Counted from the stretch's first letter, positions 52,898-54,828 are shown. The stretch is DNA of 64,000 bases from a virus (IMGVR_UViG_3300025426_000014); one strand, 5' to 3'. Notes: generated from the sequence alone by a model not told the origin. Translations and numbers: made by a program.

Positions 52898-53656
52898 ATG
52901 AATAAATTTAAACATTCCGGAGCCTTTGGCGACCTCATTTATAGTCTCCCCATTATGAAACATTTTGGTGGAGGTGAGTTTTATCTGCATCTTAACCAAA
53001 TCGATTGGATTGGCATGCACTACTATGGTAGTCCTCCAAACCCATTCCATAAGGGCAGATTAACTCCCAGTGATTTCAAATATATGAAGTCATTTATGGA
53101 AGCACAAGCGTATGTTACCAAGTTTGATGCGTTAACTCCTCAAACTGAAATAACTCATAATCTAGATAGATTCCGTGTGCCATTTGTTGGACACCCCGGA
53201 AACTATGTGGACATCTACAGTGATGTGTTCAACATTCAAGATAAAGACACAGTGCGTAACACCCCTTGGTTAACCGTACCTAATCCGCAAACTATTGAAG
53301 GTCGAACTATTGTTATCAATCGTACAGAACGATGGATTCCCACCCAACTATCCACAGTTTGGGAAGATTGGCGTTCACAAGGCATGGACCAAGAAGCTGT
53401 GTTTGTTGGCTTGCCCAACGAATATGAAAAGTTTAAGAAAGACATCGGTTGGGATATTCCTTATCATGAAACCAAAACAATGTTAGATTTGGCAGAAGTT
53501 ATTGCAGGCTGCGATCAGTTTGTGGGTAACCAAAGTCAAGCTCTAGCATTGGCCATCGGGCTAGGCGTTCCTGTGTGTTGTGAAGCAAGACAAGATTTGC
53601 CTATTGAACGCAACGAATGTTACTTCCCCGATTTAGAACGTATCCAATACTTTTGA
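52898..53656 (+). CDS. GT9 (heptosyltransferase)-like glycosyltransferase
   Basis: HSGAFGDLIYSLP; LDLAEVIAGCDQFVGNQS..LALAIGLG.P. Confidence 0.75.
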   Translation: MNKFKHSGAFGDLIYSLPIMKHFGGGEFYLHLNQIDWIGMHYYGSPPNPFHKGRLTPSDFKYMKSFMEAQAYVTKFDALTPQTEITHNLDRFRVPFVGHPGNYVDIYSDVFNIQDKDTVRNTPWLTVPNPQTIEGRTIVINRTERWIPTQLSTVWEDWRSQGMDQEAVFVGLPNEYEKFKKDIGWDIPYHETKTMLDLAEVIAGCDQFVGNQSQALALAIGLGVPVCCEARQDLPIERNECYFPDLERIQYF

Positions 53657-53866: not shown

Positions 53867-53977
53867 TTAATCTTTTTGAAGAGACTTTATATGGGCTTTT
53901 CTAAATCCAAAATAATATTGTCCCGAAGGTATATGTCTAATTTTATAGACATAGGCTGGAATGGTGTTTAAATACAT
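53867..53977 (-). pseudogene. Truncated GIY-YIG homing endonuclease remnant (36 aa)
   Basis: MYLNTIPAYVYKIRHIPSGQYYFGFRKAHIKSLQKD*: Y-V-Y...Y-Y-F-G bipartite motif; SD AAGGA, 5' hairpin and TAAATA (54044-54039) upstream. Confidence 0.65.
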
Positions 53978-54059
53978 TGCTGATAAGGTCCTTTCTTGTT
54001 AGAGTAGTTGGGAACGCCAATTCCGCGAACTACACCAATATTTATGCAGGAAATGAGAT

Positions 54060-54828
54060 ATGATTAAGAAACAAAGACTGGGCATTATCCAGTCGAGGGG
54101 GTTGGGGTGACATTCTTATCTCCCTTCCTATTGCGAAACATTATTATGACGAGGGTTGGGAAATCCTGTGGCCCGTGGCTGATGTATTTCTCGACAATGT
54201 AGTCAATCATGTACCCTGGGTCAAATGGATTCCAGTTCCAGTAGACCCCGGCCCATTCTTCTATGACGTTCCCATGCAACGTCTTAAAAACTTCAAGGTC
54301 GACGAAGTCCTGTGCCTATACAATGCCCTAACCGGACATCCTGAGTTCACAGCCCGACCTGAGTTCCAACTCATGAAGTTTGATCAATATAAGTATTCTG
54401 TAGCAGGGGTTCCTTTCCTTAAGAAGTGGACTTTGGCTGATTGCATTACAAGGGATTATGATGCTGAAGGTACGCTTTACAAAAAACTTGGGAGTCCTGA
54501 ACATTTTGCCATTCTTCATTTGGATGGTAGCGATTACCGTGCTGGGTTTGACACTAGTATTATCCCAGAGGATTGGCAACAGATTGAAATCAAAGAAGGA
54601 ATGACGCCCAGCGTGTTTAACTGGATTGGTATGCTATCTAACGCAGAGTCTATTATATGTGTAGACAGTGTGTTTAGCAACCTAGTTGATCAAATGAACC
54701 TGGGCACGGATAGATATTTTATTCCACGCAGTCATATCCAACTCACCCCGGTATTGGGCAATGATTGGACTATCATGGACTTTGACGATGCCACAAAGAA
54801 ACGCGTAACTATTTTTGGAGCAAGTTAA
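54060..54828 (+). CDS. GT9-like glycosyltransferase interrupted by a +1 frameshift at 54105-54110
   Basis: ATG 54060 (AGGA SD) gives MIKKQRLGIIQSRGLG then TGA; the +1 frame continues DILISLPIAKHYYDEGWEILWPV into track ORF 54175..54828 (ICVDS.FSNL). Joined product 255 aa with RGLGD motif. Confidence 0.75.

Follow-up and report, generated by a model that had tools for sequence, protein, structure and literature searches.

Layout of the locus and of the frame break

The window, by which we mean the whole 64,000-nt stretch of viral DNA that was analysed (IMGVR_UViG_3300025426_000014), carries on its plus strand a gene for a predicted GT9-like glycosyltransferase (54060–54828) whose reading frame is broken after 16 codons. 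Upstream of it lie the leader and the remnant of an endonuclease gene, both on the minus strand. We use the word cassette for the mobile unit that would be formed by a Seg-like GIY-YIG endonuclease gene with its leader and a replacement for the 5′ end of the gene next to it; the four cassette lineages are those of the window, L109, L178 and L249. The features are:

53867–53977, minus strand: remnant (36-aa ORF) of a putative free-standing Seg-like GIY-YIG (DUF7487) homing endonuclease gene; ~688 nt deleted, junction at 53882–53889 (blastn)
53882–54128, no strand: 247-nt tract with 100% identity between haplotype A (the window) and haplotypes B, C and D; flanks 76–86% identical
53978–54046, minus strand: endonuclease leader, with a hairpin containing the SD (53978–53998), a 37-nt hairpin block (53999–54035) and a late-promoter-like CATAAATA (54039–54046; TATTTATG on the plus strand)
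54060–54107, plus strand: ORF0, the first 16 codons of the GT9-like gene, with the start supplied by the cassette; the peptide is the same in four cassette lineages
54096–54101, plus strand: internal SD-like AGGGGG, codons Arg13-Gly14, 3 nt before the shift codon; invariant in the window, L109, L178 and L249
54102–54104, plus strand: spacer codon TTG (Leu15), which would be in the E site with GGG in the P site; invariant in four lineages
54104–54108, plus strand: putative shift site, a G4 run that includes the added G and is followed by T; the spelling in continuous orthologs is (C/T)TN GGN GAY
54105–54107, plus strand: GGG that would re-pair as GGT (54106–54108) in the +1 frame, as read from the sequence
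54108–54111, plus strand: frame-0 stop TGA and the C after it; L109 has TGA T, the other three lineages (window, L178, L249) TGA C
54109–54828, plus strand: +1 frame, 239 codons and a stop, the body of the GT9-like glycosyltransferase; 62 of the 63 residues with at least 95% conservation are kept

From the ATG at 54060 the sequence continues with ATT AAG AAA CAA AGA CTG GGC ATT ATC CAG TCG AGG GGG TTG GGG TGA, the stop occupying 54108–54110 with a C directly after it; the 16 codons of ORF0 encode MIKKQRLGIIQSRGLG. The +1 frame is open from 54064, contains no ATG, GTG or TTG upstream of the motif, and from the GAC at 54109 onward spells DILISLPIAK... over 239 codons to a natural stop at 54826–54828. 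Joined, ORF0 and the +1 frame give a protein of 255 aa (16 + 239), and what ORF callers see is a 217-aa ORF starting at the GTG at 54175. An earlier sequence-only reading had claimed the break at AGG GGG TTG GGG TGA C behind the ATG at 54060, a +1 frame devoid of start codons before the motif and a joined product of this length, and all three claims hold. Homologs read the motif in a single frame, as K(R/K)LGIIQSRGLGDI(V/I/L)IALPIA, which places the break exactly at GGG-T-GAC, between Gly16 and Asp17. The window allele equals the ancestral TTG GGT GAC with one G added, and the joined product restores the conserved SRGLGD motif.

The same reading likened the site to the frameshift signal of prfB, and rightly so: the prfB motif has been described as AGGGGG, a 3-nt spacer, the shift codon and TGA C (PMC12421855), and the window has this layout, with an SD-like purine run 3 nt 5′ of the shift codon and 6 nt 5′ of the stop. 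GGG-U, judged from the sequence alone, would permit two G:C pairs in the +1 frame and is not the canonical CUUU. An AGGGGG at this place is more than chance would provide. The window holds 8 copies against 15.2 expected, a roughly two-fold depletion, with 0 on the sense strand of 59 crudely called genes, and the copy at 54096–54101 is the sole sense-strand AGGGGG in the window's called genes; GGG accounts for 6% of the window's glycine codons. SD-like sequences precede about half of the phage's genes in the window, and the one before the 54060-type ATG is weak in three lineages. The AGGGGG is followed after 5 nt by a third-frame GTG at 54107, which opens a 31-aa ORF (54107–54202, plus strand), and the internal SD could also drive spurious initiation there.

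Spread of the break and the endonuclease cassette

That the frame break is real, old and conserved is close to certain. The same broken sequence was present in 27 of the 27 contigs inspected, which represent clusters of 217-, 209-, 205- and 184-aa ORFs; the contigs with the break stem from JGI, ENA and Logan assemblies of many samples and several studies. The break is identical in L001–L010, L011–L017, L089–L091, L099–L101 and L102–L107, and six additional JGI contigs also carry it. AGG GGG TTG GGG TGA is found, between different neighbouring codons, in L109 (a 103.6-kb contig), in L178 (a 107-kb contig) and in L249/L250 (from two studies). Single-base indels in G runs are common artefacts, and this prior is all that speaks for a sequencing or assembly error or for a private recent mutation of this genome; against it stands the identity of dozens of independently assembled contigs and of four lineages with different surroundings, which leaves such an error next to no probability. 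Sequencing error or recent pseudogenisation had been the mundane alternative in the sequence-only reading, and it falls with the 27 contigs and the three further lineages, since a break that recurs unchanged in so many samples is neither an error nor a young pseudogene. A scan of IMG/VR and JGI contigs for G3 or G4 behind the window's flank returned G4 alone, with no G3 allele, and no in-frame cassette-type start was found in either set; the scan of IMG/VR for cassette-type starts yielded two frameshifted contigs and nothing else. Recurrent independent G insertions were considered as well and rejected, given that the MIKKQR start and a spelling specific to the cassette are common to all carriers.

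But how is the gene read elsewhere? About 66 of the 67 orthologs sampled in IMG/VR are continuous, and these alleles spell the motif in many ways, e.g. AGA GGT CTA GGC GAC or CGT GGA CTG GGT GAC: AGG GGG is used in four of them, GGT GAC in many, and the position of Leu15 is CTN, TTG or ATT. Among 5.8 billion proteins 661 relatives were found, the continuous ones being 238–261 aa long. Searching the GenBank phages with the DNA of the locus gave no match, and a protein search gave only cyanophage ORFs of ~26–30% identity.

The endonuclease gene next to the broken alleles is intact on the minus strand of L099, L089 and L088 (haplotypes B and C and one A contig), where it encodes 268 aa; the window retains its first 32 codons and its last 23 nt. 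In L099, L089, L088, L178 and L249 it begins about 80 nt from the transferase ATG. The protein matches PF24308 (DUF7487) above the cut-off (E 3e-10) and PF19835 (SegE_GIY-YIG) just under it (E 1.6e-4; 22.3 bits for a cut-off of 25), and its N terminus, YVYKIRH...YYFGFRK, is GIY-YIG-like by eye. L109, L178 and L249/L250 have endonucleases of 76–79% identity in the same place, that of L109 being a 100-aa stump. The endonuclease has decayed twice, by the deletion in the window and to the stump in L109, with the transferase frames intact. Continuous relatives have no endonuclease at this position, and their upstream gene overlaps the transferase start. More distant endonuclease homologs (72% and 62% identity) occupy the same place beside continuous genes, indicating that the extra G is not required to keep the nuclease there. 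In the nuclease tree, one branch (support 83/96) parts the break-linked from the continuous-linked genes, a split that is consistent with one origin of the break.

The leader of the endonuclease gene is a module of about 75 nt, made up of ATAAATA, a 37-nt block GTAGTT...AACTAC with an inner GGAA/TTCC, and a variable SD hairpin before CAGC(A)ATG. Exact copies of the core 23-mer occur in 69 IMG/VR contigs, in which the longer module is near-identical, and the leader precedes free-standing endonuclease genes of both the GIY-YIG and the HNH type at many loci (L111–L177). Both stems show compensatory changes (GCAGTT/AACTGC and GATA/TATC); a comparison with Rfam returned no family. Because this leader is typical of free-standing endonuclease genes, it marks the broken 5′ end as the flank of a homing endonuclease.

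Haplotypes A to D diverge from 54129, 54151 or 54165 onward and are only 76–86% identical further upstream; their transferase bodies share 80% (B), 94% (C) and 96% (D) of amino acids with haplotype A. We read 53882–54128, the stretch common to all four, as a probable co-conversion tract. The extra G lies within ~3 nt of the distal end of the cassette DNA in L109 and L178, 8 nt from it in L249 and 21–58 nt from it in haplotypes B, C and D. The break has a single origin: every allele with the break has the 5′ end of the cassette, and these 5′ ends have a spelling in common that resident alleles do not have. It is very likely that the broken 5′ end belongs to a mobile homing-endonuclease cassette.

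This edge, missed by the sequence-only reading, changes what the site can be taken to mean. That reading had proposed an adaptive sensor, the glycosyltransferase being made only when RF2 termination in the host is weak, and the comparison of related phages that it called for turned out as it expected: the break and AGG GGG TTG GGG TGA are conserved in four lineages, with synonymous flanks and intact halves. Most sampled orthologs are continuous, however, and the site is thus not a family-wide regulatory device. A sensor would fit the full prfB layout, the reading of UGA by RF2 only and the conservation of the core in four lineages. However, close relatives from shared samples are among the continuous alleles (JGI 3300006112 is the source of both L097 and L004), the site is confined to the cassette 5′ end, the TGA arises automatically when GGT GAC receives a G, and no link of the enzyme to termination is known. 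The TGA T of L109 also argues against weak-stop tuning, TGA T being a stronger stop context than TGA C in E. coli. We consider an RF2 sensor improbable; with the site at the edge of a mobile cassette, compensated hitch-hiking or a 'savior' indel is the simpler account.

Selection around the break and the encoded enzyme

Comparison of the lineages shows the imprint of purifying selection on both sides of the break. On the upstream side, the four-lineage consensus is ATG ATT AAR AAA CAA AGA YTN GGN ATY ATC CAG TCR AGG GGG TTG GGG TGA. Codons 2–16 contain 6 variable sites with at least 8 substitutions between the four lineages, all of them synonymous in frame 0, where 32 of the 135 possible changes in these codons are synonymous (0.237^8 ~ 1e-5); in the other frames 5 or 6 of the 6 variable sites would change a residue. 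The 15-nt core is invariant in the four lineages. Its four codons are constant though each is four- or six-fold degenerate, and four comparably degenerate upstream codons took 6 of the 8 changes; the extra constraint on the core codons is marginal by a hand estimate (about 0.02, or 0.07–0.08 counting all codons). Between lineages, roughly 4–8 of the 13 positions of the non-coding spacer before the ATG differ by eye, and the endonuclease genes are separated by a dS of 1.2–2.2 with a dN/dS of about 0.1, from which it follows that the cassette is old. The evidence that postdates the origin of the break consists of the 16 upstream codons and the core, a small sample. Piecemeal copying of the synonymous ORF0 variants from resident alleles was also considered; it is out, as the nearest continuous alleles spell these codons differently.

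On the downstream side, the gene bodies show mobility and no sign of decay. All 6 of the 6 frameshifted alleles reach the natural stop. Of the 63 residues that at least 95% of 40 continuous homologs have in common, their bodies keep 62–63. In a gene tree of 40 continuous and 6 broken alleles, the latter need at least 5 separate placements, beside continuous sisters; where a close continuous sister was sampled, the terminal branches are much alike in length (0.14 vs 0.12 and 0.41 vs 0.43). The body of L109 is 0.0044 changes/site from continuous P0133 in the tree, the N terminus of P0133 differs, and directly after the extra G the L109 sequence switches to the resident allele; this junction with P0133, like the state of the cassette at the P0229 locus, was read at the protein level. 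Since every transfer brings the cassette to a new body, the intact state and the low dN/dS of the bodies could be older than the invasion. The body evidence is weaker than that of the upstream codons, and the bodies may be young in their present context.

Could the transferase simply be the casualty of a selfish cassette? In that case homing would inactivate a dispensable transferase each time, no full-length protein would be made, and the prfB look would be a by-product of AGG GGG and GGT GAC receiving a G. Much at the locus suits this account: the break lies within the co-converted flank, the bodies are freshly acquired at each transfer, the L109 body lies very close to continuous P0133 in the tree, a paralog-like gene sits next door, and since AGG GGG occurs in four continuous alleles and GGT GAC in many, one G insertion gives the motif. 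Yet 8 of the 8 upstream substitutions are synonymous while the spacer and the synonymous sites of the nuclease are heavily diverged, 0 of the 6 alleles have a secondary lesion or have lost a conserved residue, the nuclease decayed twice and the transferase did not, and the core codons are fixed although they vary freely in continuous alleles. We regard a mere casualty as unlikely, if still worth keeping in mind.

What enzyme would the joined frames encode? Pfam returned no family for the transferase at E up to 0.1, and a 16-sequence profile found no sequence match in the PDB. A model of the continuous homolog P0122 (pLDDT 90.5) has its best Foldseek matches in the PDB to 3tov, WaaC (2h1h), WaaF (1psw) and TibC, with a probability of 1.0 and TM values of 0.5–0.6; the transferase is about 70–90 residues shorter than these GT9 structures. 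The fold thus suggests that 54060–54828 encodes a compact GT9-like glycosyltransferase of the GT-B type. The earlier label GT9-like stands at the level of fold, where GT9 heptosyltransferases are the best PDB matches, and finds no counterpart in Pfam. The P0122 model puts the break in the loop joining strand 1 and helix 1. WaaC has a matching LGD motif, the Asp of which we take to be its catalytic base; if so, a protein made without ORF0 would be inactive.

One continuous homolog of 252 aa, P0071, has the cassette's N terminus with RGCGD in place of RGLGD (MIKKQRLGIIQSRGCGD...). Its sequence could have come from a cassette in which the loss of one base at a second site, together with a W-to-C change, put the frame right, and it suggests that the frame of the cassette can be, and has been, restored. 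If this is what happened, there was selection to make the enzyme without bringing back the original DNA spelling. Some continuous alleles replace the otherwise conserved Leu of RGLGD (P0004 by Ile, P0039 by Phe, P0131 by Asn); purely as speculation, such variation might let the target evade the endonuclease.

The neighbouring gene at 52898–53656 (plus strand, 252 aa) had been called a paralog in the sequence-only reading. The likeness is real but weak: the two share only the N-terminal G-x-GD-(L/I)-I-x-x-LPI motif, with a local BLASTP match of 8/18 residues at E 0.003, and the neighbour has no Pfam match. It is kept (252–257 aa) beside the broken gene in most relatives, and the two may work as a transferase pair. 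Haplotype B has an extra 310-aa gene between the transferase and a 2OG-Fe(II) oxygenase gene (L011:1785–2717), which is absent from the window and has no Pfam match.

Proposed decoding of the break in the light of known systems

Several routes lead from a broken frame to a full-length product. Internal initiation is out, as no start codon in the +1 frame is conserved. A fix at the level of DNA or RNA, in which slipped-strand phase variation or slippage during transcription of the G4 run provides in-frame templates, or else expression in two pieces or by re-initiation, could draw on the position of the break in a homopolymer run and, for re-initiation, on the third-frame GTG 5 nt past AGGGGG. 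But a run of four G is far shorter than known slippage tracts, and every contig inspected has G4, none G3 or G5. Re-initiation, for its part, has no conserved ATG, GTG or TTG in the +1 frame near the site to work with and would leave the amino-acid sequence of ORF0 unconstrained. A repair of either kind is very improbable.

The frame break is probably decoded by a +1 slip. Ribosomes arriving at GGG-UGA would slip one base forward and go on to make the full-length enzyme: the peptidyl-tRNA(Gly) would leave GGG and re-pair with GGU, aided by pairing of AGGGGG with the anti-SD 3 nt upstream and by slow RF2 termination at the UGA. GAC (Asp) would be decoded next, restoring ...SRGLGD..., and the expected trans-frame peptide is GLGDILISLPIAK. 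Both the slip and its efficiency are what we infer. The window and the 103.6-kb L109 record, both of them fragments, contain no tRNA genes, and nothing thus points to a quadruplet-reading tRNA of the phage. We know of no demonstration of GGG-UGA as a natural +1 site. The Atkins review makes no mention of GGG_UGA.

A shade less firmly than the slip itself, we favour a wider explanation on the lines of mobA and gene 60: the extra G rides along with the cassette as an indel that may protect the cassette's target, and ribosomes make up for it by slipping into the +1 frame at GGG-UGA. Several transfers between phages would have joined the out-of-frame 5′ end of the cassette to another resident body on each occasion. 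The frameshift signal was probably born in one step, by insertion of the G. Whether the extra G also benefits the cassette is a matter of analogy: it may spoil the target of the endonuclease and so protect carriers of the cassette, a proposal that we put at somewhat under even chances. More tentatively again, the extra G could be the immunity determinant of the cassette, ruining the nuclease's target within a highly conserved motif and tolerated because one G put into AGG GGG TTG GGT GAC makes a full RF2-type +1 signal; a one-base insert with a slip might then be the general minimal counterpart of the T4 gene 60 hop, used by free-standing nucleases to invade coding DNA, the nucleases sharing one leader in these freshwater T4-like phages.

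If correct, the wider explanation would tie recoding to selfish DNA and make the locus the second instance, after T4 gene 60 and much simpler, of a homing-endonuclease cassette that comes with its own translational repair. Breaks of this type are annotated as pseudogenes or truncated ORFs (here as proteins of 217, 205 and 184 aa), which means that functional genes are under-called in the catalogues of uncultured phages. The site itself is short and well defined.

Finally, we would like to set the site beside the recoding systems that it resembles. To our knowledge, prfB is almost the only gene in which a +1 frameshift of its SD-stimulated type has been recognised. The present comparison adds evidence for such a signal in an unrelated gene, using tRNA(Gly), and shows a route by which a prfB-type signal can arise in one mutational step. 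In both sites precisely 3 nt separate the AGGGGG from the shift codon, UGA stands in frame (with C as the next base in 3 of the 4 lineages here), GAC is the first +1 codon, the core is conserved across lineages and the position is early in the gene, at codon 16 here and at codon 25/26 in prfB. They differ in the shift codon, which is GGG (re-pairing with GGU) here and CUU in prfB, and in the product, a GT9-like transferase instead of a release factor, with no autoregulatory loop. The present site is also confined to one mobile cassette rather than family-wide, and is known from sequence.

+1 frameshifting at CCC_UGA has been described in tail genes of Listeria phages and in E. coli pheL and other genes (PMC5009743). 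There, too, a homopolymeric P-site codon stands beside UGA, its tRNA re-pairs one base on, and phage genes are among the users; however, CCC_UGA sites employ tRNA(Pro) and have no upstream SD stimulator, and in the Listeria phages the shift adds a longer second product instead of rescuing a broken gene. Similar, too, are the 'savior indels', in which low-level compensatory frameshifting makes up for an indel, as in the G run of the herpesvirus thymidine kinase or in mitochondrial +1 inserts (PMC5009743). As we propose for our case, a one-base indel in a G run is kept because a translational slip yields enough product, but the indel described here goes with a selfish nuclease, is old and conserved, and has beside it a strong stimulator of the canonical kind.

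A further parallel is that of mobA and gene 60 in T4. MobA is an HNH homing endonuclease, and the gene 60 insert of 50 nt acts as a translational bypass (Bonocora 2011 as cited in PMC5009743; Manning and Atkins, bioRxiv 10.1101/2022.08.31.505936); the insert travels with MobA, blocks cleavage of carriers by MobA and outlives the nuclease (PMC5009743; bioRxiv 10.1101/2022.08.31.505936). In both systems a free-standing endonuclease, a replacement gene end and a recoding element (here a putative one) move as one unit, insert repeatedly into diverged alleles and bring a new N-terminal piece, and the recoding element stays where the nuclease has been lost from some carriers. Where T4 uses 50 nt and a hop, the present cassette has one base and a putative +1 slip; its nuclease is probably of the GIY-YIG/DUF7487 type instead of HNH, and it does not divide its target into two proteins. 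For MobA, protection of the target has been shown; here it would be the work of a single G.
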